Shown one piece after another: positions 131-52,673 of a stretch of 64,000 nt of DNA. Within the stretch, counting starts at the first letter, position 1, and each line of letters starts with the position of its first letter. Source of the DNA: an uncultured Planctomycetaceae bacterium. Its GTDB lineage: Bacteria > Planctomycetota > Planctomycetia > Pirellulales > PALSA-1355. The translations under genes and the position numbers were made by a program. The DNA lies in contig CAWHDQ010000014.1 of the NCBI GenBank assembly GCA_963828155.1, positions 225,089 through 289,088 of the forward strand, given 5' to 3'. The notes beneath the pieces were generated by a model. It was not told the DNA's origin. It saw only the letters and a program-made list of their open reading frames with translations, and made no database searches.

Positions 131-461
131 GCCCAAAGTCTACCAGAGCTGCCGGCCTGGAACTGCGGGTCTAGCCGAGCGGGGGGCGGGCAATACACAA
201 GGCCTCGGCAATCGGAGCGGGACCGCGTTTGCTGTGAACCGGACGCTTTGATCCTCGCGATTGCTCAAGCGGTTGACGAATTACCGTGGTGAGCGGCCGT
301 TCGTAATGATCGTCACGAAGTGACGCGTCGTGCTCGGGCCGCGTCAATGCGGGGCAACACCGGCCGCCGCCGGCGGTCTTAACGAGGGAGTTCGTCGGCG
401 CGTTTGTCCCTGCCCCCTAATCTCTACTCCCTGCCCCCTTCCTCTGCTACCATTGCCGGGC

Positions 462-1815
462 GTGCGCTCCCATGTCGTTCATAGCCCGGGCATTCTGAGG
501 CCGCTGGTCTTGCTGGCCGGACCGGTGCTCGTTGAGCAAGTGCTGGGCATGCTGGTCGGCTTCTCCGATACGCTGCTGGCCGGACACTATCTGAGCCAGT
601 CGCATCTGGCCGCGATGACGCTGCTGGCGTATCTGCTGTGGGCGTTCAACGGCCTGTTCTCGGTGATCGCGATCGGCTCGACGGCGATGGTCGCCCGATT
701 TGCCGGCGCCGGCGACTACGAAGATGCCAACCGCGCGACCCATCAGTCGCTGCTGGTGGGCATGGTGCTGGCGGTGATCGCCACGCTGGTGATGATGGCC
801 CTGGGCCCGCGGTTGGTGGGGGTGCTCGGGGCCGAGGGGGAAGTGGCCGAGCTGGTCACGCGGTATTTGCGGTTCCTGCTGCCGATGCTGCCGCTGATCA
901 TGCTCGAGGCCGTGCTCATCGCCTGTCTGCACGGCGCCGGCGACACGATCACCGGCCTGGTGGCGATGGTGCTGATCAACGTGACCAACATCGCGCTGAG
1001 CTGGTCGCTGATCCTGGGGCTGGGCCCCCTGCCTCGGCTGGGTTGGGACGGCGTGGCGATCGGCACGAGCGTGGGCTTCGCCATCGGAGGGCTCGTGCCG
1101 CTGGCGGTGCTGATCCGCGGCCGGTATGGCTTGCGGCTCGAGTGGCGGTTGCTCAAGCCCGACTTCGGTCTGATCCGCCGCTTGCTGCGAGTCGGCTTTC
1201 CCGGCGGGGCCGACGTGATGTCGCTGATCGCGCTACAGTTGATTTTTTTGCGCTGGTCAACCAATTGGGCACGCTGGCGATGGCGGCCCACGGCGTGGCG
1301 CTGCGGATGGAGTCGCTGGCCTACCTGCCGGGCTACGCCTTTCAGGTGGCGGCCGGCACGCTGGTGGGCCAGTTCCTGGGCGCGGCGATCCGGCGCGGGC
1401 CCTGCGAAGCGTGCGGCTGGCGGGCGCGTGCAACCTGACGTTCATGATCGTGGCGACGATTGGGCTGTACTGGGGCGCCGATTGGCTGGCCGGCTGGTTC
1501 GTCTCGGCCGACGATCGGGCGGTCGGCGAGCTGGCGGCCCGGCTGCTGCGGATCGTGGCCTTGGCCCTGGTGCCGCTGGGAATCTTGCAAGTGCTGACCG
1601 GCGCCCTGCGCGGCGCGGGCGATACTCGCTGGCCGCTGGTCTTTACGCTGATCGGCTTTGTCGGCGTGCGGCTGCCGCTGGCCTGGTGGCTGGCCTTCCA
1701 CGAGGATTTTGGGGTCCGCGGGGCCTGGATCGCGATGGCGGTCGATCTGAGCTTCCGCTGCCTGTTGGTCGTGGGCCGCTTCGAGCAAGGGGGCTGGAAG
1801 CGGGTGCGGGTGTGA
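462..1815 (+). CDS. MATE family efflux transporter (2 apparent frameshifts, ~1250 and ~1395)
   Basis: Stitched ORFs 330/638/1411; MATE motifs 'D TLLAGHY', 'GAGDT', 'LRGAGDTRWP', 'GAWIAM'; many TM segments; first shift lies at a T homopolymer; start uncertain (GTG 462 or TTG 453). Confidence 0.85.
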
Positions 1816-1851
1816 GCGGCGCCGCGGGCTGGGTCTATTCGAGAACCGTCT

Positions 1852-1900
1852 CGGACAAGGGGACAGTCCCATTTTGCTGCGCAAAATCGGGACGGTCCCC
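1852..1900. repeat. Palindromic GGGACAGTCCC-type repeat/hairpin between convergent genes
   Basis: gggacagtccc-attttgc-tgc-gcaaaat-c-gggacggtccc: nested inverted repeats. Confidence 0.55.
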
Positions 1901-1920
1901 GATTGTTGGCGGATTGGCTC

Positions 1921-3095
1921 TCAGTAGCGGTACACGCGGCGGAACAGCCACAGGCCCCAGAGGCCGAACACGATGTTGCCCAGCCAGACCGCCAGCGGCG
2001 GCGCCGAGCCGTTCTTGGCCAGATTCACCGCCAGCATCAGCGGCGGATAGTACAGGACCAGGATCGGAAAGAAGCAGGCAAAGAACGTAACCCAAACCTC
2101 CGGGCTGCGGCGGCGGATGGCCATCGGCACGCCGACCAGCGCGAAGAAAAAACAGCTGAAGCCGTTGGCCCAGCGGCGGGGCGGTTCGGTCCGCATGCGG
2201 AACAGCGTGTTGCGGGCTTCGGCCAGCTCGTGCCGCCGCGCGGCGGTGGTGGGACCGGCCAGCCGCAGAAGGTCGCCGCCGGTCAGGGCCAGAGCGGCGC
2301 CGGCGGCTTGCTGCTGTTCCATCCGCTCGATCAGCTTGACTTGCTTGGGCGTGCGCTCGACGAGCTCCTTGAGCGACATCCGCGAGGGGCTCTCGCCGCT
2401 GGTGTCGCCGGCGTCCATCAGGCGGATTTCGCGCTCGAAGGTGTCGGAGAACTCGAATGTGTTGCCGTCCATCTCGATGCTGCCGTCGCGGCAGATCACG
2501 GTCAGCACGCCGGAGCCGGGATTGGACCGCAGCTCCGCCTCGCGGGCGCGGACCAGGACGGGCGCGGCGCCCCCGAGCGGAACGTGAACATCGGCATCAG
2601 CAGCCGGCGCCCTTCGACGCCTTTGACGTTGACCGAGAATTGCGGCGAGACGAAGCATTTCTGCGTGCGGAGCACGCTGTAGGCGATTTCCTCGAAGGCG
2701 TCGGTGACGACTCGCTTGACGCCCTGCGGAGTCCAGGAGAAGCCCACGTCGTTGAGCCAGAACGTGACCAGGCTCAGCACCACCGCCAGTCCGAAGACCG
2801 GCAGCAGAATGCCGGTCGGGCTGACGCCCAGCGCCTTGAGGGCCACCACTTCGCCGGCCGCCGACATCCGGCCGAACACGCTGGTGACGGCAAACAGCAT
2901 CGCTGCCGGCACCGCGAACAGCAGCGCCTGCGGCAGCAAGTAGGGCATCAGCCTGGCGATCGGCCCAATGCCCAAGCCGTGCTCGATGGCCTCGCGGCCA
3001 ACGCCCACCAACAGCAGCACGGCCGTCAGCGCGCCGACGACCAGCAGGAACACCTGCAGGACTTCGCCGAGAACGTAGCGCGGGAACAGCGGCAT
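1921..3095 (-). CDS. LptF/LptG (YjgP/YjgQ) family LPS export permease (frameshift ~2575)
   Basis: MPLFPRYVLGE..., 'FGRMSAAGEVVALKALGVS', C-terminal 'RWANGFSCFFFALVGVPMAI...WLGNIV'. Confidence 0.85.
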
Positions 3096-3816
3096 AGGAC
3101 CTTGCAAGCGGCGCGGGCCGCGCGGGAACCATTCCACCCTGGCGCCGACGAACGCGCGGGGCTCAGAGCCGCCAGCTTATAGACAGGGCGTGCAAGCGGC
3201 GTCAATGCGGCTTGCGCCACGGGACCGACCGCGCCCGGCTGCCAGCATCGGTTGCCGCGGCAGCTGGTCGGGCTGCGGCCAGGACCCAAGCCGGAGAAGG
3301 TTTTTGGGACGGCGGGGGCGGCGGGGGCAATAATCGCGCCGCTCGGCCGCGAATGGATTGTCGGTTGGCGGCCCGTGGGCGGCCTGCCGCACGAAATCCG
3401 GCTGCGGGGCCACACACAACCCCGGCGCGGGGTGCGGCCCCGTCTGACGGCTCCGGGCAGCCTTCGCCGGCGATTTTCACCGCCGTATCCGCGGTTTTCG
3501 CGGGCCGTTCGACTCGTTGTCGCCGACCCTGGGGCGGGTTTTGTCGGCCGCCCAGCCACTTTAACTCGCCGCGACCCTTATTTAAGATGAATCATTCCGG
3601 CCCCAGCGGCTGGACCCGTGATGTCGGAACCCACGGGTCGGTACCCCCGCGACAGTGCCGACGCGACTTGCGACAGGCGGCCGGTTGCCGGCGGCGCAGA
3701 GCGCCACTGAAATCAGCGACACGATAGCAGCGACAATACCTGGCTGCGGCGGCGACCGGCCGCCCGGCATTCGGCGCCCCCAGACGGCGCATCCCTTCGA
3801 GAGGAGAGCACGCGGT

Positions 3817-4632
3817 ATGCTACGGAACGTTCGTCCGCATCACATTTGGTTGGGCCTGCTGATCGTGGTCGGCGTGGCCTTCATCTGCGGCCTGACGCCG
3901 GCGCTGGCCTGGGCCCAGGAAGAAGCCAAAGAAGCCGTGCCCGAGCAGAAATCGAAGTTCTGGTGGTTCATCGAATCGTCGGGCTTCATCGGCCTGGTGA
4001 TCTTGATGCTGAGCATCTATTTCGTCTCGACGGTCTGCCGGCTGTTCATCGAATTCCGGCCGATCGTGGCGGCTCCGCCCGAAATCGTCGACGAAGTCGA
4101 AGACATGCTGCAGAAGCGGCAATTCAAAGAAGTCTACGGCGTGGTGAAGGACGACCCCTCGTTCTACGGCCGGGTGCTGGCGACCGGCATCGCCGAACTG
4201 CCCAACGGCCTGTCCGAAGCCCGCGACGCGATGGAACGGGTCAGCGAGTCGCTGACCGTGGAAATGGAAAAGAAGATCAGCATGCTGGCCGTGCTCGGCA
4301 CGCTGGGCCCGATGATCGGCCTGTTGGGTACGCTGAAGGGGATGATCGCCAGCTTCTCGGTGATCGCGCTGAGCGGCACGCAGCTCAAGGCCAGCGAAGT
4401 GGCCGGCGGTATTTCGGAAGCCCTGCTGCTGACGTTCGAGGGCGTGGCCCTGTCGGTGCCGGCGATTTACTTCTTCGCCATTTTCCGCAACCGCGTCTCG
4501 TCGCTCTCGGTGATGACGACGCTGCAGTGCGACGAGTTCCTGCGGCACTTTGCCCATGCGGCCCGCAGCAAGGCGCCCCCGGCCACGCCGGCCGCCGCCG
4601 CCGCGGGACCCGCCAAGGCCGCCAAGGCCTAG
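3817..4632 (+). CDS. exbB: MotA/TolQ/ExbB proton channel protein
   Basis: 'LGTLGPMIGLLGTLKGMIASF' and 'GGISEALLLTFEGVALSVPA' TM2/TM3 signature; signal-peptide-like N-terminus; GGAG upstream. Confidence 0.9.
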   Translation: MLRNVRPHHIWLGLLIVVGVAFICGLTPALAWAQEEAKEAVPEQKSKFWWFIESSGFIGLVILMLSIYFVSTVCRLFIEFRPIVAAPPEIVDEVEDMLQKRQFKEVYGVVKDDPSFYGRVLATGIAELPNGLSEARDAMERVSESLTVEMEKKISMLAVLGTLGPMIGLLGTLKGMIASFSVIALSGTQLKASEVAGGISEALLLTFEGVALSVPAIYFFAIFRNRVSSLSVMTTLQCDEFLRHFAHAARSKAPPATPAAAAAGPAKAAKA

Positions 4633-4709
4633 TCGACCGTCCCCGCGGAGCGATCGCTCACGCTCGACCGCTTGAAATCTGACGAGACCGTTTTTCCGGA
4701 TCGCACACG

Positions 4710-5179
4710 ATGTCTGGCTCTCTCGACTCGGCCGCCAATGCCGAACCGAATCTGACTCCGATGCTGGACATGGTGTTCCAGTTGGTTACCTTTTTCATGC
4801 TGGTGATCAACTTCAAGACCGCGGCGATGGATCTGGACCTGAAGCTGCCGGTCGTCGGCTCCGCCCGAATGGTCGAAGGGGCGCCGGCAAGGAGCTGGTC
4901 GTGATGAACCTCGACTCGCACGGCGTGCTCCGCGTCTACGGCAACGAGGTTCCGAACATCGAGGCTTACGTGCAGAGCGAGGCCCTCAGCAGCCGGCTCG
5001 CGGTCCAACGCGCCGAGGGCACCGAATTGAAACCGGGGGACGACCTGCCTTCGATCGTGGTCATCCGCGCCGACAAGGACACCCCGTTCAAATTGCTCAA
5101 CCGCCTGATCAAGGCCTGTCAGGACAACGGTTTTCGCAACTTTGCCCTCAAGGCCATGAACAAGGCCGAGGGGACGTAG
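4710..5179 (+). CDS. exbD: ExbD/TolR protein #1 (frameshift ~4890)
   Basis: 'NLTPMLDMVFQLVTFFML' with conserved Asp; C-terminal 'VVIRADKDTPF'. Confidence 0.85.
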
Positions 5180-5253
5180 CGCCATAGGCTGGTCCGTGGC
5201 GGGCCGCCCCCCGAGTTGAAACTGAAGTCATTGCACTCTGAGCGCGTGTTTCG

Positions 5254-5772
5254 ATGAGCCGGAAGAAGAAAAAACGGGGCAACGAGAACGTCGAGCTCAA
5301 CCTGGCCGCCATGCTCGACATGGCGTTCCAGCTGCTCACGTTTTTCATCCTCACGTTCAAGCCCGCCCCGGTCGAAGGCCAGATCGACCTGCGGATGCCG
5401 CCGCCCCAATCGATCACGCCGCTGGCCGGCGGCAAGAAGGCCGGGCAAGACACCTCGAACACCGATCCCCTGCAGGGGCTGAATACCCTGGTCGTCAGCG
5501 TGGCGGCCAATCCCAAGGACGGCACGATCGGCTCGATGCAGGTGGGCGACGAGCTGGTCGGTTCGCTTCCGCGGCTCGACGAGCGGCTGCGGTCGATCTT
5601 CGGCACGCCCACCTCGCCCAAGGATCAGGTGCTGATCCACGTCGACTCGAAGCTGACCTACGCCGCGCTGATGAGCGTGGTCGACGTCTGCACCCGGCAG
5701 GTGATCGTCGACAAGGATGGCAATCAGAAGCCGCTCTCGAAGATGAGCTTCGTCGAGATGGTGACCGAGTAG
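5254..5772 (+). CDS. exbD: ExbD/TolR protein #2
   Basis: 'ELNLAAMLDMAFQLLTFFIL'; 'VLIHVDSKLTYAALMSVVDVC'. Confidence 0.88.
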   Translation: MSRKKKKRGNENVELNLAAMLDMAFQLLTFFILTFKPAPVEGQIDLRMPPPQSITPLAGGKKAGQDTSNTDPLQGLNTLVVSVAANPKDGTIGSMQVGDELVGSLPRLDERLRSIFGTPTSPKDQVLIHVDSKLTYAALMSVVDVCTRQVIVDKDGNQKPLSKMSFVEMVTE

Positions 5773-6001
5773 TAAGGTCGCTGCCGCCGAGAGCGCGGCG
5801 CTGTCGATTCGGATTGCTGCCGCGACGTGTACGCCAGCAGCATTTTCTTACAGCCTGCGGAGTGCTTTGCTGCGCGGTGTGCGCGCACCGCCAGGCGTGC
5901 CTCCGCGTGGCAGGCGGAATAACCGGCCGCCGCCCACGCGAATCTTGCCCTGGAAGCGGGGCCAACGGTTTGCCGGCTTCCAGGAACTCGGAGGCCAGGC
6001 A

Positions 6002-6493
6002 ATGCGCCGCCGTCGACGTCACGCGGTTCAGACGGTCGAGCTCAATCTGGCGGCCATGCTCGACATGGCGTTTCAGCTGCTGGCATTCTTCATCCTCACG
6101 TACCAGACCTCGCCGGTCGAGGGCCAGATCGACCTGCGGCTGCCGCCCCTGGCGACGAGCGTGCCGGTTCCCTCGCCGGGCGGAGATGTTGGCCAGCCGG
6201 CCAGCGCGCTCGTGGGCCTGACGACGCTCGACGTGGAGCTGCAGGCTGGCGTCGGCGGCGAGTTGGGCGGCATTTTGCTGGCCGGCCGCCCGGTCGACGA
6301 CCTGGGGCGACTGGAGCGCAAGCTGGCCCGCACCCTGGCCGATCCGACGATGCCGTTTCAGCGCGTGGCCTTGCACGTCGGGCCGCGGCTCCGCTACGAA
6401 GCGCTGATGCAGGTGATCGATGTTTGCGGCCGGCTCCGGGTGGCGTCGGGGCAGAAGCTGGCAGAGCTGAGCTTGCGGGAAATTCCGGAATGA
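6002..6493 (+). CDS. exbD: ExbD/TolR protein #3
   Basis: 'ELNLAAMLDMAFQLLAFFIL...PVEGQIDLR' nearly identical to #2; GGAGG RBS upstream. Confidence 0.85.
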   Translation: MRRRRRHAVQTVELNLAAMLDMAFQLLAFFILTYQTSPVEGQIDLRLPPLATSVPVPSPGGDVGQPASALVGLTTLDVELQAGVGGELGGILLAGRPVDDLGRLERKLARTLADPTMPFQRVALHVGPRLRYEALMQVIDVCGRLRVASGQKLAELSLREIPE

Positions 6494-6663
6494 ACGGGCC
6501 GTGCGCTACCGGGCCGAGGACCGCTGTTTGCCGCAAATCGGCGGCTTGCCGGCCCCATCGCGAGGCGCGTTTTCGGACGACGTCCTCTATACTATATTTC
6601 TGCGGACCCCCGCGGGGCGCTGGGGCCCGGTATCCGCTCCCGCCGATCCAGGAATCGTTCGAC

Positions 6664-8346
6664 ATGCGACGTTTGCGCGATCGTCAACAGGCCCACTTGT
6701 TTCGCGGCGGCGAGTTGCCGCGACTGATGACGATGGTCGTGATGCTGCTGGTGTTGGGGATGCTCTATCGCCGGGCCTCCGATCACAATACCTGGCGGTT
6801 TCTGACCGGCGAGCCGGCGTCCATCGGGACGCTGGACGACGACTCGACCGGCAGCCGGCCGCGGAGCACCCCGCACGCGCCGATCCGCAGGCCGGGCTCG
6901 GTCGTCGTCACCGCGCCCGAAACCGATGCCGATCTGATGCTGGCCTTCGAGCACAAAACCGTTCGGCCGGCCAGCGGGCCCGATCTCACGGCGGCGCCGT
7001 CCGCTGAAACGACCACCTCCGCGGAAACGCCCCCCTCCGCCCTGGTCGCCTCCGCGGCGACCGACCCCGAGCCTCCTGCCGCTGTGGCGGAGCCGACCGA
7101 AGTGGCCCAGGCCGAGCCCGCGCAAGATCAACCGCCAGCCGCGCAATCGCCAGCGGTCGACGATCCGGCAAGCGCCTCGTCCGTCGAACCCGTCGCGCCG
7201 CCGGCCAGCACGAGCGAACCTTCAGATCAACCCGCCGCGGCGCCGGCTGCGGAAGCGCCGGCCGCTAAGGAATCACCAACCACCCGCGAAGCACCGGCCA
7301 CGAAGGATTCGTCGGCTGCTGGTGCGGGACCGGCTGCGGCGGACGCGCAGGGCAGCGCCGCACCGGCGGCGGATGCCGGCGACAAGAAGCCGAGCGAGCC
7401 TGTCGCGCCGGTGCTGCCGAAGCCGTTGTTCCGGCCCCATCTGCCGGCCGCGCCGGACAACGTTCTCGATCCCAACCAGGAGCCGGCCAGGCCCGAGCTG
7501 GAGCCGAATCCGCTGGATGAAGACCCGCAGGAGCGGCAGCAATTCGACCGCGAGGCCGAGGCGATCTCCGATCGCACGCCGCTCGGCGAGGAGGAAATGT
7601 TCGCCTACTGGCGGCTGATGCGCTGGGCCCAGTCGCAGAATGCCGACCAGCTCGTCAAGCGGGCCCGCGGCGATTTTCGCTACGGCGACCTGCTCGAGCG
7701 TCCGCAGGAATTCCGCGGCGACCTGCTCAAGGTCAACGTACACATTCGCCGCATCTTGCGGTACGACTCGCCGCCGGGCATTCCAGTCGACGCGCATGAA
7801 TACTACGAAGCGGTCTGCTGGACCGAGGCCACGCAATCCTGGCTGTACACCTGCGTGTTCGTCGATCTGCCCGAGGGAATGAAGGTCGGCGATTTTCTCC
7901 AGGAAGAAGGGACCTTCGTCGGATATTTTTTGAAGACCTACGTCTACCTCGACGGCCGGGGCATCAAGGTCAAATCCCCAATCCTGATCGGGCGGATGAT
8001 TTATCGGCAGGCGCCGGCGATCACCCAGAGCAAGGACGAATGGATCTGGGGGGCGGCGGTCGGCGGGGGCTTGCTGCTGCTGTTTTTCGCCCGCTGGGGC
8101 TTGCGGTCGATCGGCAAATCCGGCACAAACCCGCCGGTTCGCCGGGTTTTGCAGCGCGGGCCTCTGGCGGACGAGCCTAGCGAGGGGCAAAACATCGAAG
8201 AGTGGCTCCAGCAGGCCGAGGCGCAGACCCGGGAAGCGGAAATAAAATCGGCCCTCGGGCACGATTTCAATGGCAGCCGGGCCGGTGACGGAGCCTCGCT
8301 GTTGGGCGACCTGGAACAGGGCAATGCGGGGCGAAATGAGCCCTGA
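6664..8346 (+). CDS. Hypothetical membrane protein: N-terminal TM, Pro/Ala/acidic stalk, beta-rich globular domain, C-terminal TM
   Basis: TM 'LMTMVVMLLVLGMLY'; low-complexity PAAAP region; globular 'FRYGDLLERPQEFRG...GYFLK'; TM 'WIWGAAVGGGLLLLFF'. Confidence 0.7.
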   Translation: MRRLRDRQQAHLFRGGELPRLMTMVVMLLVLGMLYRRASDHNTWRFLTGEPASIGTLDDDSTGSRPRSTPHAPIRRPGSVVVTAPETDADLMLAFEHKTVRPASGPDLTAAPSAETTTSAETPPSALVASAATDPEPPAAVAEPTEVAQAEPAQDQPPAAQSPAVDDPASASSVEPVAPPASTSEPSDQPAAAPAAEAPAAKESPTTREAPATKDSSAAGAGPAAADAQGSAAPAADAGDKKPSEPVAPVLPKPLFRPHLPAAPDNVLDPNQEPARPELEPNPLDEDPQERQQFDREAEAISDRTPLGEEEMFAYWRLMRWAQSQNADQLVKRARGDFRYGDLLERPQEFRGDLLKVNVHIRRILRYDSPPGIPVDAHEYYEAVCWTEATQSWLYTCVFVDLPEGMKVGDFLQEEGTFVGYFLKTYVYLDGRGIKVKSPILIGRMIYRQAPAITQSKDEWIWGAAVGGGLLLLFFARWGLRSIGKSGTNPPVRRVLQRGPLADEPSEGQNIEEWLQQAEAQTREAEIKSALGHDFNGSRAGDGASLLGDLEQGNAGRNEP

Positions 8347-8590
8347 TTCGCCCGCCGGGGACAGGCTCCACGGACTTGACTGGGGCGCGTTTCGGGAAAG
8401 ATAATCGAGTGCTGGCCAGGCCCGGCCGGCAGGCGGTGCTGGCGTGGGTCGATGCTGCGCCGGTCGCCGCGCGGGCGGCTGGGCGTTTTTGTTTCTGGCA
8501 TCCAAGGCGGTTGGCGGCTCCCCCGACGCAGGCGTCGGATCGGCCGCCCCATCCGGCGGCGAGGGCTCGCCCTAGAAGAGGATGTAGTCA

Positions 8591-10180
8591 ATGTCGGAGA
8601 TTGCCTCCCAGATACCTGCCTCGAACGAGCTGGTCGAGGACCTGAAACTCTGGGTCCGCGAGCGCGGCCTGTGGTGGGCCACCAGCGTCACCGCCCATGC
8701 CGTCATCCTGTCGCTCGGCTTGCTCCTGGCCGGCGTGATCGTCACTCCGCTGAAGAATGACGATGCGCATGCCTTCGACGCCACCAGCGAGCCAATCGCC
8801 CCCGAACAGGAAATCGAGCACTTCGAGCTGGGCGAAGCTCCCGAGCAGCCGACCGAGTTGACAACCGACTCGCTGATGCTCGAGACGCCCACCGTCACCG
8901 AGCAGATCAATACCAGCGATGCCGATCCGTTCACCGAAGCCGGCGGCGGCATGGGCAGCGCCGAGGTCTCGTTCGGCGGCGGCGCAGGATTCGAGATCAA
9001 GGGCATGGGCGCGGGCCCGGCCCTGAAGAACATGGGCGGCATCGGCGGCTCGGGCGAGAGCACCAAGCCTGGCAGCGGCGGCAAGGGCGAAGGCTTCGGC
9101 TCGCGCGGCACCGGCGTCCGCAAGGCGATGCTCGGCCACGGCGGCACCAAGGCCAGCGAACGGGCCGTTGCCGCGGCGCTCAATTGGCTTGCCCGGCACC
9201 AGGGCCCTGACGGCAATTGGAGCCTGGCCAACTACAAGAAGATGTGCAAGGACGGCACCTGCACCGGCACGTCCCAGGCCGAGTCGGACGCCGGCGCCAC
9301 CGCGATGGCCCTGCTCCCCTTCCTGGCGGCCGGCCAGACGCACAAGTCCAAGGGTCCCTACCGCAAGAACATCTACGCCGGGCTCTACTGGCTGATCAAG
9401 AACCAGAAGACCGACGGCGACCTGTCGGCCGGCAGCCCGCAAAAGATGTACACCCACGGGCTGGCCACCATCTGCATGTGCGAGGCCTACGGCCTCAGCC
9501 AGGATCCGACCGTCGGCGGTCCGGCCCAGCAAGCGCTCAATTTCATCTGCAAGGCTCAGAACCCGGGCACCGGCGGCTGGCGCTACCAGCCCGGCGAAGA
9601 AGGGGATACCTCGGTCGTCGGTTGGCAGGTGATGGGGCTCAAGAGCGGGTTGATGGCCGGCCTCGAAGTCCCATCCCCTGTGCTTGAAGGGGCCCAACGT
9701 TGGTTGAAGTCCTGTGCCTCGGGTAAGGGCGGCCTGTTTTCCTACGAGCGGGCCGGCGGTCCGACCGACACGATGTCTTCGGTCGGTCTGCTGTGCTCGC
9801 AGTATCTGGGCATGCAGAAGCAGGACCCGGCCATGGTCGAGGGGGTCGCCTTCCTGATGGCCAATTTGCCCGACGTCAACAAGCGGAACACGTACTACTG
9901 GTACTACGCCACTCAGGTGATGCACAACGTGCCGGGCTACGATTGGGATAACTGGAACCGCCGGATGCGGAAGATCCTGATCGATACCCAGGTGCGCAAG
10001 GGCTGCGCCGAGGGCAGCTGGGATCCGGCGGTGCCGGCCAAGGACGTCTGGGGCGAACATGGCGGGCGGATCTTCATGACCAGCCTGTCCTGCCTGACCC
10101 TGGAGGTCTATTACCGCTACCTGCCGCTCTACAAGCTGGACGGCCAGGACGCGAAGAAGCCGGCCGGCGAGGCCAAGTGA
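8591..10180 (+). CDS. Membrane-anchored prenyltransferase/squalene-cyclase-repeat ((alpha/alpha)6 barrel) protein with TonB-like SxxxH anchor
   Basis: QW-like repeats WLARHQGPDGNW, WLIKNQKTDG, FICKAQNPGTGGW, DTQ..EGSW; 'YYWYYATQ', 'LEVYYRYLP'; TM with S32-x3-H36. Confidence 0.85.
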   Translation: MSEIASQIPASNELVEDLKLWVRERGLWWATSVTAHAVILSLGLLLAGVIVTPLKNDDAHAFDATSEPIAPEQEIEHFELGEAPEQPTELTTDSLMLETPTVTEQINTSDADPFTEAGGGMGSAEVSFGGGAGFEIKGMGAGPALKNMGGIGGSGESTKPGSGGKGEGFGSRGTGVRKAMLGHGGTKASERAVAAALNWLARHQGPDGNWSLANYKKMCKDGTCTGTSQAESDAGATAMALLPFLAAGQTHKSKGPYRKNIYAGLYWLIKNQKTDGDLSAGSPQKMYTHGLATICMCEAYGLSQDPTVGGPAQQALNFICKAQNPGTGGWRYQPGEEGDTSVVGWQVMGLKSGLMAGLEVPSPVLEGAQRWLKSCASGKGGLFSYERAGGPTDTMSSVGLLCSQYLGMQKQDPAMVEGVAFLMANLPDVNKRNTYYWYYATQVMHNVPGYDWDNWNRRMRKILIDTQVRKGCAEGSWDPAVPAKDVWGEHGGRIFMTSLSCLTLEVYYRYLPLYKLDGQDAKKPAGEAK

Positions 10181-10412
10181 GGCGGCGCAAAAGCGCCCGC
10201 GCAACCTGACCGGCACGAACGATCGAGACAAGTAAATGGGGGCCTGGCTGGCGGCCCCGCGGGAACCGAGAAGCCAGCGTCCTATCCACCAGGCACCACC
10301 GCGCGGCGGTCCTTCGCGGACCGTGCGACGCGGCGCGCCCCGTCGGTTGCCTTCCCATTCGCGAGGCCCGAACCGGCGGGGACTATCCTTTATTGCCGCA
10401 CTGGCTGCAAGC

Positions 10413-13400
10413 ATGAAACATCTGCATTGGCTCGGCGCTCGTCGGATCGGGGCTCCTTGGCTCACTGCCCATTGGCTCACTGCCCATTGGCTCAGCGCCG
10501 GCTGCTTCGTCGGGTTGCTCCTGGCTCTCGCTTCACCGGCGGGCGCGAAGGAAGAAGCCGACCGGTTTCTGGAGGAGCTCAACCGCCGCGGTTACGGCGA
10601 GGTGACGCTGACCTATCTCGACTTCCTCAAGCAGTCGAACCTGCTGCCCGAGGACGTGGCCGAGAACTGGGATCTTTATCAGTCCCGCGGCTGGCGGCTG
10701 GCGATCAACGAGGCCTTCAACGACAAGGAAGTCGAAGAGCGGACGGCCAAGGCCAAGGCCCTACTCGACAAGTTCCTCAAGGATCATCCCGAATCGCCCG
10801 ACGTGGGCGAAGAGGTGGCCGAGTGGGGCGACATGACGTTCAAGTCCGGCTTGCGGCTGTTTGCCCAAACCCGGATCACCAAGGACGCCGACAAGAAAGA
10901 CGCCCTGATGCAGAAGGCCCGGGCCGCCTTCCTGGAGGCCAAGCCGCGGTTCGAGCAGGCGGTCGAGCTGCACCGCAAGAACATGTCGGCCCTGCAGGCG
11001 GCCGCCGGCGGCGCCAAGGGCAAGAACGCCGCGGCCAAACAGGCTGCGATCGAGAACGCCGAGCTGCTGATGACCGATGCCCAGCTCAAGCTGGCCAAGG
11101 CCGATTTCTTTCTGGCCATGACCTACGCCGACGATGCCAGCGAGCAGGGCAAGGCCACCCGCAAGGCGACGCTGGAAAAAGCCCGCCTGCAGTTCGGCGA
11201 CATCTACCAGCGCGTATCGCACCGGCGTGATCGGCCTGATGGCCCACACGTTCGAGGGCAAGACGAGCGAAGAGCTGGGGGACGACGGGACCGCCCAGGA
11301 GATGTACGACGAAGTCCTGGCCCTGATGCCTGCCAACGGCAATGAGAAGGTCGACCGGCAGCAGGAGAACATGTTCTCCCAAGTCCAATACTTCTACTTC
11401 ATGATCGTGCTCAAGAAGGATGGGCCCAAGGCCATCCTGTCCGAGGCCCGCGAGTGGCTCAAGCTGTTCGAGAAGTGGCAGAAGGCGGACGGCTACCAGG
11501 GCATCGCGCTCGAGGTGGCCAAGGCCGACGTCGCCCTGCTCGAAAAAGGGGGCGGTGACCAGCGGCAGCAGCTCAAGAAGGAAGTCGACGACATCCTCAA
11601 GATGATGAAGAAGATCCCCAGCGAGTACCACAAGGAGGGGATGGAGCTCGCCCGGGAAATGAACAAGAAAGGCGGCAGCGCCGGACCGGCCAAGACCTGG
11701 GACGAAGCGGTCGCCAACGGCGACGACTCGTTCGGGGCTCAGAAGTGGGACGAGGCAATCCAGTTCTACGAGCAGGCCATCGGCATGTCCAAGGGCATGC
11801 CGGCCGCCGGGCGGAAGGCAACGCTGGCCTCGATCCGCGAGAAGTTGGAAACCTGCCACTACAACCAGGTCTATCACCTCTTCTCCGAGGGCAAAGAAGA
11901 GGAGGCCATGGCCCTGGCCGCCAGCCTGATCGAGGAGAAGAAGATCAGCGCCAAGAGCGAGACCGCCGGCAAGCTGGCCGCGCTGCGGGTACACATCATC
12001 CTCCGCCGCTACGCCTCGTCGCAGAATGCCGAGGAAAAGGAGAAGCTGCTCGCCGAGCTCACTGCGGCCGCGGCCGACGTGGTCGAGAAGTGGCCCGACA
12101 AGCCGGCCGCCGACGACGCGCGGATCGCCATGGCCCAGGCCGCGATGGTCCAGGGCAAGACGGCCGACGCAATTACCCAGCTCGAGGATGTGAATCCCCG
12201 TTCGGAGAAGTACCCCACGGCCCTGCACATGGCGGCCCTGGGTCACCTGCGGATCTGGAACGTCGAGAAGCAAAAGCCGCCGGCCGAGCGCAACGCCAAG
12301 CTGATGAAACAGGAGTCTGAGAAGGCCGTCGAGGATCTGGAAAAGTCGATCGAGGTCCAGACCAAGGCCCTCGGCGACGGCCAGTCGCTGCCGGGGCAGC
12401 TGATCGAGTCGGAGTTGGTGCTGGGCCAGGTCTATCTCGAGGCCAACGAGGCCCAGAAAACCGCCCAGCTGCTGCAGCCGGTCGTCGATTCGATCAAGGC
12501 CTCCAAGCCCGAGAAGCTCGATGGCACCATGCTCAAGGTCTTCAGCACCGCGGTCCGGGCGTATGTGGCCACGGGCGATATGACCAAGGGGGGCGACGTC
12601 GCCACGGTGCTCACCGACCTGGGCGACGACGTGGCCGACATCAACGCCGTGCTGGTGGCCTTCGCCCGGATGCTGTTCGCCGAGTACAAGTCGGCCAGCG
12701 CCGCCCTGATCGAGGCCAAGGCCGAAAACGACTCCCAAGCCATCGCCACGGCCGAAGCCCGGTTGGGGGGTACCAAGGAGCTCTTGGGCAAGCTGCCTCG
12801 AGCGGCTCGCCCCGCGCAAGAACAACACGCCGGTCAGCATGATCTCGATCGGCGACATGGCCGCCGAGCTGGGCCTGATCGAGCTGGCCAGCGAGATCGA
12901 CAATCGCATCCTGACCCACGCCGCCGAGGACGAAGCCTTCTCCGCCCAGTGCGGCCAGAGCGGGCTGACCCGCGTTCAGTCGCAACTGGTCGATCTGCTG
13001 CGGCAAAAGAAGCAATACGAAGAGGGGCTCAAGCAAGTCGACGCCCTGATCGAAAAAGTGCCCAAGGCCCTCGAGCCCCTGATGACCAAGGGCCGGATTC
13101 TGCAGGCCTGGGCCGAGCAAGACTCGGCCAAGTTTCCCGATGCCGTATCGCACTGGGCCAGCCTACGGCAGAAGCTGTCCGGGGCGGTGAAAAAACCCGG
13201 CTGCCCGGCCGACCTGAAGGCCAACTACTACGAAGTGAACTACAACGTCGCCCTCTGCCTGTTGCAAGAAGCGATCAAGACCAACGCCCCGGACAAGGCG
13301 ATCGACTGCCAGAAGGTGCTCAACGCCATGCTGATCAACGCGCCCAAGCTCGACGGCCCGGAAACGGTCGCCAAGTATCGCGAGCTGATCAAACGGGCCG

Positions 13401-13465
13401 ACGAAGTCGTCAAGAAGTCGCCCAAGGCCCAGCCACCGGCCAGCACGGCGGCCAAGGCCAAGTGA
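10413..13465 (+). CDS. Large exported all-alpha/TPR-like protein, ~1000 aa (frameshifts ~11215 and ~12797)
   Basis: Signal peptide 'FVGLLLALASPAGA'; helical TPR-like segments (AVANGDDSFGAQKWDEAIQFYEQAI; LLRQKKQYEEGLKQVDALI) across ORFs 10236/11134/12839. Confidence 0.75.
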
Positions 13466-13728
13466 CCGCCGCTTTGCCGCCGCGCCGGGTCGAGCTGGTG
13501 CTGGTCGATTTGGGCTTGCCCGGTACTGCCCTGCGGGCCGGCGAATGGCTGGTGGCCGCCGGGGCCGAAGTCGCCCGCGGCGACCGCCTGCTGGAGATCG
13601 TGGCCGGCAGCGTCACGGTCGATCTACCCGCCCCGGCCAGCGGCATTTTCGCCCAGCGACTGGTCGAAACCGACGCAGAGCTGCGCGTCGGTCAGGTGTT
13701 GGCCGTGATTCACGTCGCCGACGCATAA
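13462..13728 (+). CDS. Stand-alone biotin/lipoyl-attachment-fold protein lacking the acceptor lysine
   Basis: GTG overlaps upstream TGA; 'EWLVAAGAEVARGDRLLEIVAGSVTVDLPAPASG...VGQVLAVI' aligns to lipoyl consensus. Confidence 0.75.
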   Translation: MTAALPPRRVELVLVDLGLPGTALRAGEWLVAAGAEVARGDRLLEIVAGSVTVDLPAPASGIFAQRLVETDAELRVGQVLAVIHVADA

Positions 13729-13750
13729 CGTTAGCCGCGCACGCGTCATC

Positions 13751-13781
13751 CAGTCCCCAGCCCCCAATCCCCAGCCCCTCC
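13751..13781 (-). repeat. G-rich heptamer-type short tandem repeat after stop codon
   Basis: Minus strand ggggctggggattgggggctggggactgg; near-identical copy at 44861-44890. Confidence 0.6.
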
Positions 13782-13783
13782 GC

Positions 13784-14437
13784 CTACCGCACCAGCTCCA
13801 GCGTGCCCCACAGGCTGGGATCGACCGCGAATGGGAACTCGCTCGAAGCGGCGAATGTCTGCTCGCCCTGCTCGCGGTCGAACAGCCAATAGGTGAAGCC
13901 CAGCCGCGGATGATCGTCGGGCTGAAAGCCGGTCAGGGCCGCCGCCGGCACCAGGGCCGCCAGGCGATAGCCGTCGGGCCGGCGACTCGGCCGCGACCTT
14001 GAGCTGCCCGGGCCGGATCGGCCGGGCGTTTTCCCGGGCTCGTTCGATAAGCAGCTGATCGGCGACCGGCTCGGTCAGTTGCCGCCCGCCGCCGGCCGGC
14101 AAGAACACGAAGCGGTGGCAAAAGCGGCTGGCCCGGTGAATGTTGTGCGTGTCGCGGGTGTCGATCCAGACTTGCAGCCCGTCGCTGTCCTCGACGCGGC
14201 TGTCGCGGCACCAGGCCGGTTGGCTCTTGCCCGACACGTGGACATCGAGCGCCAGTCCCTCGGCGTTCCAGGCGGCCCGGACGTCGGCGTAGGCTTTGCG
14301 CCCTCGAGCTCGGACAAGGCCGGCAGGCGGTACTCTTCCGGCAGCTTGCCGGCGGCGTCGCTCCACAGCCGCTCGCGGTACAGGCACGGCACGGCGAAGC
14401 GAAACAGGAATCGGCTGGGCAGCAAGGATTCGGACAT
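13784..14437 (-). CDS. Conserved hypothetical protein, CBM9/DOMON-like (frameshifts ~14300 and ~13985)
   Basis: MSESLLPSRFLFRF...'DVRAAWNAEGL'...'DGLQVWIDTRDT'...'DPSLWGTLEL' stitched; stop at 13784. Confidence 0.6.
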
Positions 14438-14455
14438 GATCGACGGGTGCGGTTG

Positions 14456-17400
14456 CTAGGGGGCGTGCGCGGCTCTCAGCCGCGGGCGCTCAAGGCCGGT
14501 TCGCGCGCCCTGGGACAGGCTGTCGTAATGTTCGCGAAGGAAATCGGCCAGGTCTCCCTTGGCCAGGTCGTCGGCCTCGACGAACCGCAGCTTGACCACG
14601 TCGCGCTGGCCGCCGGCCTGGAACTCCTGCTCGGCCGCGAGCTTGGCCAGCCGGCCGAGGGCGAAGCGCCCTTGGGCCCGCTCAACTGTAGCTCAAGGTG
14701 TGCCTGCCGCTTGGTGAAAATGCTGGCCCAGGGTTCCTTCTGCTCGGCGACGAAGACGTGGACCACCTGCTGGTTGTTCCACAGGAACTGGCCGGCCGGC
14801 GCGGTCGCCGCCACCAGCTCGCACAGTTCCTCGAGCACGTCGACATCCCAGGCGGGCGTCTTGCCGGGCGGGAATCCCTTGCGCAGAAGTGCCATTTCTG
14901 CCCGAGCACCTTCCAGGGCATTACGTCCTCGGGATTCTGCCGCACCCGGGTGGAGAATTTCTCGAAGCCTGCGACCGCTTTGGCGACGAACTTCCAGAAG
15001 CCCGGCCGATCCACCTCGTCGAGCGAGTGGACTTGCAGCTGGATTTCCTGCCAGGGGCCGCGGAGGTTCTTGCATTTGACCCGCGGCTCGTGGCCGTAGA
15101 CCGGCAGGTCGGCCAGCTCGTTGAGCGGCTTGAGGTCGAGCTCGGTGATCAGCGCCTCGCGGCGGAAGGTGTTCTTGGCCACGCGGAACTTGAGCTTCAG
15201 CAGCCATTCTTCGCCGGTCAGGGCGTGGAAGAACCAGCCGTCGGCCTTCCGATCGCTGCAGATTTCGACGACGCTCCGCTCGTTCCAGTTGGTGGGCCCG
15301 AAGTCGCCCAGCTCCTGAATCTTGTCGACCAGCTGCTCCAAGATGCGGCCGTCCCAGCGGCAGGGCTGGCCGGTGCGGCCGACGCGATCCTGGGTGTGCC
15401 AGCGGCGGCCATTGGCCTGCCAGGGCATCTGGGCCTCGCGGCCGACTTCGGTGATTTCCAGATCGCCGTCGCGCTCGGTTTCCAGGGCGGAAAAATCGAA
15501 CCGCGGACGCTCTTTGTGCGGGCCGGCCGCCAGCACGGGGGCCAAAGCCTCGCCGGTGTGCGAACGCAGAGCGAGGCTCGCGGCGGCCCGGCGCGCCCTG
15601 CTTGGGCTTGGCCTGCGGCCGGGCAGGGGCCGCCTGCTGGGAGTGGGCCACGACATCCTCGGGCGTGCCGCTAACCACGACGTGGCCGCCGCCGGCGCCG
15701 GCCTCGGGCCCCAGGTCGATGACCCAATCGGCCGTTTTGATCACGTCCAGGTTGTGCTCGATCACCACCACGCTGTTGCCCAGGTCGACCAGCCGGTTGA
15801 GCACGTCGAGCAACTTGGCAATGTCCTCGAAGTGCAAACCCGTGGTCGGCTCGTCGAGCAGGTAGAGCGTGCGGCCCGTATCGGGCCGGGCCAGCTCGGC
15901 GGCCAGCTTCACGCGCTGGGCTTCGCCGCCCGAAAGGGTGGGCGCGGCCTGGCCGAGCGTCAGGTAGTCGAGCCCCACGTCGCACAGCGTCTGTAGGATC
16001 CGGCGGATCTTGGGAATGTTGGCGAACAGCTGCACCGCCTTGCCGCAGGACATGTCGAGGACGTCGGCGATCGACTGGCCGTGGTACCGCACCGACAGCG
16101 TTTCGGGATTGTAGCGCCGGCCGCGGCAGGTGTCGCATTCGACCCAGATGTCGGGCAAAAAGTGCATCTCGATGCACTTCTGGCCGTTGCCTTCGCAATC
16201 TTCGCAGCGTCCGCCGGGCACGTTGAAGCTGAACCGCCGGGCCGTGTACCCCCGCAACCGCGACTCGGGCAACTGGGCGAACAGCGTGCGGATCAGATCG
16301 AACACGCCGGTGTATGTGGCCGGATTCGAAGTCGGCGTCGAGCCGAGCGATTGCTGATCGACGCGGATCACTTTGTTGATCCGCTCCAGCCCGCGGATGG
16401 CGTCGTGGGCGCCGGGCATCGTCCGGGCCCGGTGCAACGCGCGGGCCAGCGAAGCGTACAGCACGTCTTCGACCAGCGAGCTCTTGCCGCTGCCGCTCAC
16501 GCCGGTGACGACCGTCAGCGCCCCCAGCGGAATCCGGGCCGTGACGTTCTGCAGGTTGTTATGCCGGGCACCGACGATCTCCAGCCAGCCGTCCGCGGGC
16601 CCGTCGGCAACCGGCGCGGGTTGCGCGCGCGGCCTTCTTGCCGCGTTTCTTGGTGGTGGCCGGCTCGGGGGGGGCTGCGGAGGTCGACGGCATCCGGCGA
16701 TTGGTCGGCACGGCGATCGCCTTCTTGCCCGACAGGTATGGGCCGGTGACGGACGTCTTGCTCTTGGCCAGCTCGGCGGGAGTGCCGCGAGCGACAATCT
16801 GGCCGCCCCCATCGCCGGCCGCGGGTCCGAAATCGAGCAGCCGATCGGCGCCGGCCAGGACTTCGCGATCGTGCTCGACGACCAGCAGCGTATTACCCAA
16901 GTCGCGGAGTTTTTCCAGCGCCCCGATCAAGCGGCCGTTGTCGCGCGGGTGCAGGCCGATCGTCGGCTCATCGAGCACGTACAGCACGCCGCACAGCCCG
17001 CTGCCCACCTGGCTGGCCAGGCGAATGCGTTGGGCCTCGCCGCCGCTAGAGGTCGGGGCCCGGCGGCCGAGCGTCAGATATTCCAAGCCCACGTCGACCA
17101 AAAACCGCAGGCGATTCTGCACTTCGCGCAACAGCTCGCCGGCGATCTTCCGCTCGCGGGCGTCGAGCTTCCAGTTGCCGACCAGGTCGAGCAATTCGCC
17201 CAGCGGCAAGCGGCACAGGTCGTCGATCGTGCGATCCTTGAGCCGCACGGCCGAGGCATCGTCGCGCAGCCGGCTGCCGCCGCACACCGCGCAATCGACC
17301 AGATCGACCAGGTGTTCCCACCGCGAGCGCAGGGCGGGGGAGAGCCGGGCCGCTTCTTCCAGGGCCGGATAGAGCCCCTTGTACTGGAACCGCAGCAGCG

Positions 17401-20400: not shown

Positions 20401-21515
20401 TTCCGCTCGGGCGAGAGATCGCGCCAGGGGGTTTCGAGCATCGTGCCCGAGGGGAGCGAGCGCGTCCGCTCGATCGTCTCGGCCACGCCCTGAAAGATGT
20501 GCCGCCGCCAGCGCCCCATTTCTTTCCAGGGGCCAATCAGCTCGAAGCAGCCTTGCTTGAACGACAGCGCGTCGTTGGGCACGAGCAAGTGCGGGTCGAA
20601 GCTGTAGCGCTCGCCCAGCCCGTCGCACGAGCGGCACATGCCCTGCGGGCTGTTGAAGCTGAACAGCTGCGGCGTCGGCGGCTCGAAGCTGATTCCGCAG
20701 TGCGTGCAGGCATACTGGGCCGAAAGCTGGATATCGGCCGGTGTGGCTTTGGCTGCAGTAGCGGCTTGGGCTTCGGCCGGCCGCTTGCCCTCGTCGCCGG
20801 CTTCGGGGGCGACGATCAGGCTCCCCTCGCCCAGCTTGAGCGCCGTGTCGACCGCTTCGGCCAGCCGGGCCCGGGGCTGGCCGACTGCCAACCGGTCGAC
20901 CACTACCTCGATGTTATGCCGCATCTGCCGGTCGAGCTGCAGATCGTCGGTCAAGTGGACGATCCGGCCGTCGACCCGGGCCCGCATGAAGCCCTGCTTG
21001 ACCAGGTCGACCAGCAGGTCCTTGTGCTGCCCCTTCTGAGCCCGGATCAGCGGCGCGAGCACGGAAAATTTCGTGCCGGCCGGCAACTGGCCGATCCGGG
21101 CGATGATCTGCTCGCGCGTCTGAGCGGTGATCGGCCGCCGGCAATGCGGGCAGTGGCCAATGCCAGTCCGGGCGTAGAGCAGCCGCAGGTAATCGTAGAT
21201 TTCGGTAATCGTGCCGACCGTGGACCGCGGGTTCTGCCCCGACGATTTTTGCGAAATCGAGATCGACGGGCTCAAGCCGCTGATGTGGTCGACGTCGGGC
21301 TTGGGCATCTGCCCCAGGAACTGCCGGGCAAAGCTGGACAGGCTTTCGATGTACCGCCGCTGCCCTTCGGCGTACAGCGTGTCGAAGGCCAGCGAGCTTT
21401 TGCCCGAGCCGCTCACGCCGGTCAGGCAGATCAGCCGGTTGCGAGGCAGCTCGAGCTGGACATCCCGCAGATTGTGCTCGCGAGCGCCCTTGATGACGAT
21501 GTCGGCAGCGGGCAT
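14456..21515 (-). CDS. uvrA: Double-length (tandem) excinuclease ABC subunit A with C-terminal extension (several frameshifts)
   Basis: Four Walker A motifs (GVSGSGKSS x3, GLSGSGKSS), SGGE signatures and LDEP motifs; 'GAREHNL', 'YAEGQRRY' twice; UvrA zinc-finger Cys clusters. Confidence 0.93.
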
Positions 21516-21691
21516 AGGCTTAGCGGGGCGAGATAGAATCCGTTCAGGTGCCGGCGGGTGCGATCCCGAATTGTAGGTCCCTGCCCTGCCGCCCGGCAAG
21601 GTGGCGAGTTTCGGGGATCTGTCCTGACCGGGATTTAACGGTCGAATCCGCCGGCAAATGGCCACGTTTCGGTCAGGCCGGTTTGATAGGA

Positions 21692-21988
21692 TTGTGGCAT
21701 GCAATCAAGGCCGGGCGGCTTCATTTTGTGGGGCTTACGATCGCCATCGGCGCGTTCGCACTATGGCTGCAGGAATGGGCCTGGTTCTATCCGGCGGACC
21801 GGGGCGTGGCCGTTTGGTTCGGCGGCTGCATACTCCTGGGAGTGATCGCCGCAGGCGGTATCGGAAGCCGCTTCGATCGAACGATTTTCGGCATGTACGC
21901 TGGAGCAATTCTTGGCATGGCTGCTGCCTGCGCGATTCCATGGATTTGGCTGGTGCTCAGCCCCAACGGTCCAGAGCCACCGCTATGA
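21692..21988 (+). CDS. Small hypothetical membrane protein (3 TM)
   Basis: Three hydrophobic stretches; stop overlaps next ATG (ATGA); TTG start uncertain. Confidence 0.5.
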
Positions 21989-29170: not shown

Positions 29171-29200
29171 TTGACACTGCCGGCAAACCGGCGATAAATT
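29171..29200 (+). promoter_or_regulatory. Sigma70-type promoter of pilM operon
   Basis: TTGACA-18 bp-TAAATT. Confidence 0.55.

Positions 29201-49379: not shown

Positions 49380-52673
<3,294 letters not shown>

Follow-up and report, generated by a model that had tools for sequence, protein, structure and literature searches.

We suggest that a row of genes in an uncultured member of the Planctomycetaceae probably encodes a Ton/Tol-type machine driven by the proton motive force, in which a membrane-anchored protein with an alpha/alpha-toroid head would act as force transducer and two uncharacterised, co-inherited proteins would be its partners. The row lies in a 64,000-nucleotide stretch of DNA, hereafter the window (G000:C14:225089-289088), from a genome with a GC content of 66% that is labelled Pirellulales in the sources. 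Based on open reading frames (ORFs) and profile scans, eight co-oriented genes occupy positions 3817-13728 of the plus strand. An earlier note on this DNA had listed the same eight genes (exbB, three exbD genes, and genes for a protein with two membrane helices, an anchored protein, a protein resembling tetratricopeptide repeat (TPR) proteins and a lipoyl-fold protein), and this observation was confirmed.

In the machine that we propose, ExbB would form the channel ring and the ExbD1- and ExbD2-type subunits the proton-carrying core, with ExbD3 as an extra ExbD2-like copy; we assign this motor step because of family membership and a conserved Asp. A 529-amino-acid protein encoded at 8591..10180, hereafter the toroid protein, would replace TonB or TolA. 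Its single helix may dock outside the ExbB ring via Ser32 and His36, a box 25-45 residues behind the helix may engage the periplasmic parts of ExbD, by analogy with the “motor box” of TonB and TolA, and a Gly-rich linker of about 125 residues would bear the putatively non-catalytic head. This transducer step is suggested by motif, position and synteny. Powered by proton flow, the motor would exert a pull on whatever ligand the head holds, either periplasmic or located at the outer membrane. A two-helix protein (TM2) and an exported TPR protein would be the likeliest partners or scaffold, and a Lys-free lipoyl-like ORF a lineage-specific extra.

The toroid protein has a TonB-like front

The anchor helix of the toroid protein (8669-8743) contains the sequence ...WWATSVTAHAVILS..., also given as ...LWWATSVTAHAVILS..., with Ser32 (8684-8686) and His36 (8696-8698) spaced as S-x3-H. 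All orthologues (28 of 28) had both residues, as did all copies from relatives (14 of 14). For the wider family, we collected 91 toroid ORFs from 80 loci, 78 of which had a helix before the head. S-x3-H was present in this helix in 69 of the 78 family members, whereas in the remaining ORFs of these loci only 13 of 726 helix-like segments carried it.

An anchor of this kind was also found in twelve planctomycete proteins that end in a TonB_C domain. Comparison of 53 toroid anchors with the 12 TonB anchors using hhalign yielded a probability of 93.9 (E 1.6e-7, 33 columns), whereas the toroid anchors matched the helix-bearing ExbD1 and TM2 alignments with probabilities of only 0.4 and 1.3. A hidden Markov model (HMM) of the 12 TonB anchors was then searched against 14,739 six-frame ORFs from the 80 loci, 92 of them toroid ORFs. 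All 22 matches at E<=0.1 were of toroid origin, comprising 20 toroid ORFs and 2 front pieces of broken toroid genes.

Behind the helix, the orthologue alignment revealed a conserved box at residues 75-97 (8813-8881; IEHFELGEAPEQPTELTTDSLML), in which L90, T92 and L95 are invariant. This box, 25-45 residues behind the helix, is in the place at which the main text of PMC12204202 puts the “motor box” of TonB and TolA. The distance from the anchor Ser to the head was 148 residues in most orthologues and 108-162 residues in most paralogues.

The head resembles part of a cyclase fold

The head of the toroid protein (about 9137-10138) matched SQHop_cyclase_C with 34.1 bits (cut-off 26.1), covering just 84 of the 319 profile positions, and scored 42.8 bits against the NCBIfam squalene cyclase, for which the cut-off is 322.7. 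The best match among solved structures was to the QW repeats of squalene-hopene cyclase (E 2e-6, about 90 residues). Class II terpene cyclases carry an acidic D-x-D-D motif; a search for D-x-D-[DE] found it in none of 28 heads. With a partial profile match, a score below cut-off and no such motif, we rejected squalene-hopene cyclase as an identity for the head. The best reading of these sequence features is a non-catalytic alpha/alpha toroid and not an enzyme of the named kind. The terms “prenyltransferase/squalene oxidase repeat protein” and “terpene cyclase” used in the sources thus probably describe the fold, not the function, since only the QW-repeat part was matched, scores were far below cut-off and the motif is missing.

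Profile scans found neither TonB_C (PF03544 or PF13103) in the toroid protein nor a vWA domain in its head. The description of this protein as TonB-like in the earlier note is therefore apt for the front, given the invariant S-x3-H and the TonB-anchor HMM matches, and not for the head. Conservation of the head among the 28 orthologues was very strong. Two Cys and many aromatic and polar residues did not vary, and the invariant positions include H289, E298, D339, W345, Y438-Q442, H445 and R493. One paralogue (L105) gave borderline matches to TED_complement and Pec_lyase, which we take to be alpha/alpha-toroid families.

The motor genes include two types of ExbD

The first gene of the row (3817..4632) encodes an ExbB/TolQ-like proton-channel subunit of 271 amino acids with a signal-peptide-like N-terminus. 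It matched PF01618 with 82.6 bits (cut-off 22.9) and fell below all NCBIfam equivalog cut-offs for TolQ and ExbB. Three exbD genes follow: exbD1 (4706..5179), exbD2 (5254..5772; 172 amino acids) and exbD3 (5999..6493). Their scores against PF02472 (cut-off 25.4) were 28.7 bits for the C-terminal part of ExbD1, 46.2 bits for exbD2 and 43.3 bits for exbD3, and the membrane-helix Asp is kept in all three (PMLDMVFQL in exbD1, AMLDMAFQL in both exbD2 and exbD3). In exbD1, the N-terminal part with the membrane helix lies in one frame and the C-terminal PF02472 part in another.

Alignment of ExbD1-type orthologues showed a conserved subfamily with 70% mean column identity, and the ExbD2 type formed a second, separately conserved subfamily. 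A mixed ExbD1/ExbD2 pair in the motor would fit this pattern. Cross-hits in tblastn, with about 43% identity between exbD3 and exbD2, identify ExbD3 by sequence as an additional, diverged copy of the ExbD2 type. Related loci had between two and four exbD genes.

The gene row is conserved in relatives

The gene order exbB, exbD (2-4 copies), TM2, toroid, TPR recurs across Pirellulales. Twelve loci were taken from relatives, and 9 of them had exbB, two to four exbD genes and TM2 immediately 5' of the toroid and TPR genes. Two of these 9 were partial or rearranged, one having no exbBD beside TM2-toroid-TPR and the other having TM2 7 kb off; a further 2 of the 12 loci were solitary toroid paralogues. 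We also sampled 80 loci more widely, from contigs representing one genome per species. In this sample, 27 loci were evaluable, with an N-terminus like that of the orthologues and upstream sequence of 5 kb or more. Among them, exbB plus exbD were found in 18, TM2 in 19, the TPR gene in 16 and all four in 15, with TM2 and exbB upstream and the TPR gene downstream of the toroid gene. Conservation of gene order in relatives was the test to which the earlier note had tied its reading, and the order was indeed kept.

A quick tree of 85 heads placed 20 of the 22 copies linked to ExbBD and TM2, including that of the window, in one group of 33. This group was not strongly supported (Shimodaira-Hasegawa-like approximate likelihood ratio test, SH-aLRT, 87); the other half of the tree consisted mostly of unlinked paralogues. 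Within the genome of the window we found eight MotA/ExbB-family matches, including two flagellar-type MotAB loci outside the window. Four non-flagellar exbBD clusters could be marked by their exbD matches, and behind each of three of these lies a separate gene for an S-x3-H toroid protein.

Several variants of the row were seen. Two or three tandem copies of the toroid gene lie between TM2 and the TPR gene in L036 (9996-13381), L061 (1001-5512) and L019 (7042-9989). The culturable strains Singulisphaera acidiphila DSM 18658 and Paludisphaera soli JC670 both have members of the toroid family. In the latter (L088, 1956-8386, minus strand), genes for a 1072-amino-acid TPR protein, an exbB-like protein and a 701-amino-acid S-x3-H toroid protein are consecutive, and exbD was not detected between them. 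In three Phycisphaerales loci (L081, L094 and L101), exbB and one exbD are followed by genes for giant toroid proteins of 1214-1590 amino acids with three helices and S-x3-H in the last helix; these proteins form a clade of their own (SH-aLRT 100).

TM2 and the TPR protein are candidate partners

TM2 (6664..8346; 560 amino acids) consists of a short basic N-terminus, a first hydrophobic helix, a low-complexity stalk, a conserved domain of about 200 amino acids, a second helix and an acidic tail with IExWL. The stalk is variable and, in the alignment of homologues, about 230 residues longer in this genus. No relative of TM2 was found in Pfam, NCBIfam or PDB, the best profile match to a solved structure having an E-value of 0.17. 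All 37 of 37 homologues were unnamed or “hypothetical”, and the protein-atlas neighbours of one homologue were Planctomycetota clusters without any family. We also considered TM2 as a relative of TonB and rejected this, as its profile matched full-length TonB profiles with a probability of 0.4%.

The TPR gene (10413..13465; about 1017 codons, in three frames here) encodes an exported, all-TPR-like protein with a signal-peptide-like start and only weak TPR matches along its whole length. Because they are co-inherited with the toroid gene, TM2 and the 1000-amino-acid TPR protein would be the most likely partners or scaffold of the transducer.

The last ORF of the row (13462..13728; 88 codons) begins with a GTG start that overlaps the TPR stop codon (GTGA). 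It matched PF00364 with 33.1 bits (cut-off 22.1), and its best solved matches were lipoyl domains of E2 proteins. Its product contains no Lys, and a HMMER alignment to a solved E2 lipoyl domain placed a Ser at the position of the lipoyl-bearing Lys. The ORF lies beside the TPR gene in only 5 of 92 related loci, L013, L014, L017 and L018 of the 12 and L030 of the 80, where L018 and L030 are the same place of genome G010; one further match (L063) is on the other strand. The earlier note had counted this ORF as part of the machine. Since it adjoins the TPR gene only in this genus and in G010, it is instead a lineage-specific addition outside the conserved core.

Several points weigh against the proposed transducer

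Our reading has to be set against a number of findings that do not favour it, the first of which concern the anchor. Both sets of windows compared with hhalign were centred on S-x3-H, which favours a match, and it was for this reason that we added the less biased HMM search. The E-values of that search were weak, with a best value of 7.4e-4 in the 80 loci. When the same HMM was run on the whole genome, E-values ranged overall from 0.1 to 2, and three toroid genes were among the top matches at E 0.6-1.7, which is not significant. Comparison of full-length toroid and TonB profiles did not recover the anchor and gave only a spurious 26% match elsewhere. In the SHLS motif of Escherichia coli TonB, Leu and Ser follow the first Ser at +11 and +15; the toroid protein has Gly43 and Ala47 at these positions, so that only the Ser and His are present. 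Moreover, its 125-residue linker is rich in Gly (25 residues) rather than in Pro (8 residues).

Other findings concern the genes around the toroid family. Among loci that are alike in the head only, just 5 of 29 had exbBD nearby, and 32 of 61 evaluable family copies had no exbB, TM2 or TPR gene nearby. Within the row itself, intergenic gaps measure 74-245 nucleotides, and the 245-nucleotide gap between TM2 and the toroid gene holds a promoter-like site (8376-8405) and the strongest terminator-like hairpin on the plus strand (8460-8482), both from a consensus scan only. The row may thus comprise more than one transcription unit, perhaps two, divided between TM2 and the toroid gene by these predicted elements.

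A rival reading is that the motor and the toroid protein are not coupled. The toroid protein would then be an ordinary anchored periplasmic binding protein or enzyme that is merely encoded close to exbBD, and S-x3-H would be a trait that its signal anchor has in this lineage. The family copies without a nearby motor gene and the hairpin ahead of the toroid gene agree with this, as does the conservation of the head, where invariant aromatic and polar residues and two Cys are what would be expected of a ligand site. However, few other helices in these loci carry S-x3-H, which is shared with the true TonB proteins of the phylum, and three separate exbBD clusters of one genome each have a toroid copy of their own. 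Furthermore, TonB paralogues located away from exbBD are normal in classical systems. We consider an uncoupled toroid protein quite unlikely.

A further difficulty is that exbD1 and the TPR gene have no intact frame in the window as written. Comparison with the intact orthologue of genome G003 using tblastn located three frame changes, which are absent from the account in the earlier note: one in exbD1, between 4877 and 4889, and two in the TPR gene, at 11213/11215 and near 12794. The locus might therefore be decaying, with real frame changes that make pseudogenes of both genes in this strain. In support of decay, the given sequence does have broken frames and public reads did not resolve the sites: seven public runs contained 5-11% of the sampled words, and contigs from four public runs were short pieces of related strains that left the three sites undecided. 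Nevertheless, the frame changes are most likely assembly indels. This is because the genome is 73% complete in 15 contigs and the two closest relatives 61-62% in 6-10 contigs, a pattern of indel-rich assembly; because the copies of relatives are broken elsewhere or unbroken, the TPR gene being a single ORF in G012, G013, G004 and G003 (1057 codons in G003); and because 69-92% identity to the G003 orthologue persists on either side of each break. The BamA, UvrA-like and CarB genes are split as well. Decay of the locus is, on this evidence, very unlikely.

Split genes were observed in the window at 330-3132, 14476-21704 and 49383-52754, and at 2039-5743 of L107, a locus elsewhere in the genome; they comprise MatE-like, LptF/G-like, UvrA-like and CarB genes and, in L107, BamA. 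This fits an indel-rich assembly rather than gene decay. At position 7248, within TM2's low-complexity stalk, one base is missing from contigs of two unrelated metagenome runs; these contigs are perhaps from other strains, and the frame of the window is open there.

TonB_C was not found in most relatives with a receptor

The earlier note had named an ordinary TonB or TolA encoded elsewhere as the finding that would speak against its reading. Profile searches of this genome, which is 73% complete, found no TonB_C, TonB_2 or TolB_N. TonB_C was present in 3 of 31 relatives and absent from the matches in the other 28, and in one family of the same class it was found in 0 of 7 genomes sampled.

The earlier note had also called the locus receptor-less. 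This holds for the window, in which we scanned 23 + 8 further ORFs and found no TonB-dependent receptor, TolB or flagellar family (Pal/OmpA was not searched for). It does not hold for the genome, which has one Plug-plus-barrel receptor on contig C9; its PF00593 and PF07715 matches are on contigs other than that of the window. A Plug-domain receptor was found in 16 of the 31 relatives. TonB_C was found in only 3 of the 31, and 14 of the 16 receptor-bearing genomes, this one included, showed no classical TonB.

The toroid family was present in 31 of the 31 relatives, with several anchored copies in each, and this genome had 18 toroid-family matches among the matches listed. In a phylum-wide sample of 121 genomes, each at least 90% complete, 112 had the toroid family and 89 had TonB_C, so that both often coexist outside this class; toroid matches numbered up to at least 12 per genome. 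One full-length paralogue of this genome stands without motor genes, head-to-head with BamA (POTRA plus Omp85; L107, G000:C3:97039-102992). Similar lone paralogues elsewhere shared no neighbour theme, and one of them (L067) has a BamB-like gene nearby.

The role of the machine may be import. In this case, toroid proteins would energise uptake across the outer membrane through the few TonB-dependent receptors or another channel, with paralogous heads for each cargo. The 14 receptor-bearing genomes without classical TonB are consistent with such a role, as are the size of the family, which recalls multiple TonB paralogues, and the borderline resemblance of paralogue L105 to TED_complement and Pec_lyase. 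According to passages of PMC5394234 and PMC12673574, uptake of dextran and green fluorescent protein (GFP) into the planctomycete periplasm is blocked by carbonyl cyanide m-chlorophenylhydrazone (CCCP), by a mechanism that is not known, and this too would be in line with import. On the other hand, three genomes of the genus (G001-G003) have the full locus and no Plug match, toroid genes far outnumber receptors and no ligand or channel is known. Moreover, the neighbours of unlinked paralogues (42 ORFs in 12 loci) were proteases, kinases, TPR proteins, PSCyt/DUF1501 proteins and others, with no common theme and none of transport. We regard import as rather unlikely.

Alternatively, and compatibly with a toroid-headed transducer, the machine may have a Tol-Pal-like role, tethering or remodelling the outer membrane and cell wall, for example in budding, instead of importing substrates. 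The TPR protein would play the part of CpoB, with the toroid head binding a component of the wall or outer membrane. Since TolB_N was not found in the genome, classical Tol-Pal seems to be missing. The TPR protein matched YbgF/CpoB of Tol-Pal faintly (E 2.6e-4), the row adjoins genes for LptF/G and a MatE/MurJ-like flippase in a neighbourhood that is kept at the family level, and the locus is present in the same-genus genomes that have no Plug match. However, the CpoB score was 21.6 bits against a cut-off of 90.1, and the LptF/G-MatE neighbourhood is lost outside the family, the MatE-like query having matched 1 of 80 loci. No Pal or TolB analogue was identified (Pal was not searched for), and nothing connects the locus with division. 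A Tol-Pal-like role thus appears possible, if somewhat unlikely. The suggestion in the earlier note that the locus is linked to envelope remodelling or macromolecule uptake remains speculation.

Relation to known systems

The closest published kin of this locus are the vWA-headed “motor-driven force transducers” described, in the main text of Williams-Jones et al. (2025, Mol Biol Evol, PMC12204202), from PVC (Planctomycetes-Verrucomicrobia-Chlamydiae) bacteria and other phyla. As set out there, these proteins, like the toroid protein, have a single helix with conserved Ser and His, a disordered stretch with a conserved box, a linker some 100 residues long and a globular head other than TonB_C. 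The “motor box” of the vWA-headed proteins is a predicted beta-strand, and the box of the toroid protein lies in the corresponding place. Their loci, like the one here, contain a tolQ-like gene, two unlike tolR-like genes and a TPR gene, and the function is not known for either. The two differ in that the head here is an alpha/alpha toroid, the TPR gene is downstream here and upstream there, and this locus has three exbD genes and an extra gene, TM2, between motor and transducer. The words “cyclase”, “prenyl” and “toroid” are absent from the main text of that paper (supplements not covered), and we found no paper on a toroid-headed partner of ExbBD, there being none in the parts covered of PMC12204202, PMC12505986, PMC5394234 and PMC12673574. 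A 2025 review of the phylum never mentions TonB, Tol-Pal or TolQ.

The fourth exbBD cluster of this genome (L109, G000:C6:364000-376000) has no toroid gene. It contains, in this order, two giant TPR ORFs (1142 and 654 amino acids, probably one broken gene), exbB, two exbD genes and a gene for a 342-amino-acid, family-less multi-helix protein. This is the layout published for vWA transducers, yet without a vWA match.

Compared with TonB, the toroid protein shares an N-terminal S-x3-H anchor, a gene position behind exbB-exbD and a build of anchor, linker and head, whereas it lacks TonB_C, has a Gly-rich in place of a Pro-rich linker, is missing the Leu and Ser of SHLS and is encoded in a receptor-free locus. 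Tol-Pal likewise unites in a single row a motor with an anchored transducer and a TPR protein and would share a possible envelope role; it differs in that TolB_N was not found in this genome, that TolA and Pal were not identified (Pal was not searched for) and that the likeness to CpoB is far below cut-off. The toroids of squalene-hopene cyclases, terpene cyclases and prenyltransferases resemble the head in their QW-type helical hairpin repeats. Unlike squalene-hopene cyclase, the head matches a quarter of the profile, has no D-x-D-D-type motif and belongs to a protein that is membrane-anchored with its head outside the cytoplasm.

A gliding-type surface motor resembling AglRQS-Glt was also considered, as its layout similarly combines one TolQ-like and two unlike TolR-like subunits with a TonB-like protein and a TPR protein. 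No Glt component was seen here (none was searched for), the genome has flagellar MotAB loci, and the main text of PMC12204202 describes the same layout for non-gliding PVC loci. A gliding motor is extremely improbable, and the parallel drawn in the earlier note, which has no other basis than one TolQ-like together with unlike TolR-like subunits, was overstated. More generally, its interpretation as a machine driven by the proton motive force is partly supported: the TonB-like front and the conserved gene order bear it out, while “receptor-less” does not hold genome-wide, the Glt parallel and the link to envelope or uptake do not stand as put, and “undescribed” is too strong given that vWA-headed transducers of the same logic have been published (PMC12204202, main text).

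Surroundings of the row in the window

Upstream, the row is flanked by a diverging LptF/G-like gene and then a MatE/MurJ-like gene; downstream lie converging genes, including a UvrA-like gene. An Rfam scan of 3100-14500 matched no family. Near-identical pieces of the locus were found in one metatranscriptome run at 7284-7465, 10042-10289 and 13054-13435, which hints at expression only weakly at best.

About 15 kb downstream of the locus, the window contains a type IV pilus-like assembly row (29175-39961), with PilM (29175-30635), several family-less ORFs and then a 1084-amino-acid secretin (36710-39961). Arginine-biosynthesis genes are interspersed in it. Pili have figured in discussion of planctomycete uptake; nothing connects the pilus-like row with the motor locus.

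Implications for planctomycetes

To our knowledge, Ton and Tol are the only well-understood means by which energy from the inner membrane is spent at the diderm bacterial outer membrane. If our reading of the locus as a Ton/Tol-type machine is correct, the range of known transducer heads would extend beyond TonB_C/TolA and vWA, and the labels “prenyltransferase/squalene oxidase repeat protein” and “terpene cyclase” would be misleading for thousands of genes.

A bolder variant would make toroid proteins the long-sought energy couplers of macromolecule uptake in planctomycetes, with dozens of heads of a glycan-binding type sharing a few ExbB-ExbD motors. Polysaccharides or proteins would be pulled across the outer membrane into the enlarged periplasm, and the core station of the motors would be this locus with its TM2 and giant TPR partners. 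We consider this variant improbable; if true, it would account for the arrest of dextran and GFP uptake on collapse of the proton gradient. Within the more general reading, the toroid-headed machine would be a testable candidate for proton-gradient-dependent envelope processes of planctomycetes, including the CCCP-sensitive uptake of macromolecules reported in passages of PMC5394234, and the co-inherited TM2 and 1000-amino-acid TPR proteins would offer new handles for finding its target.

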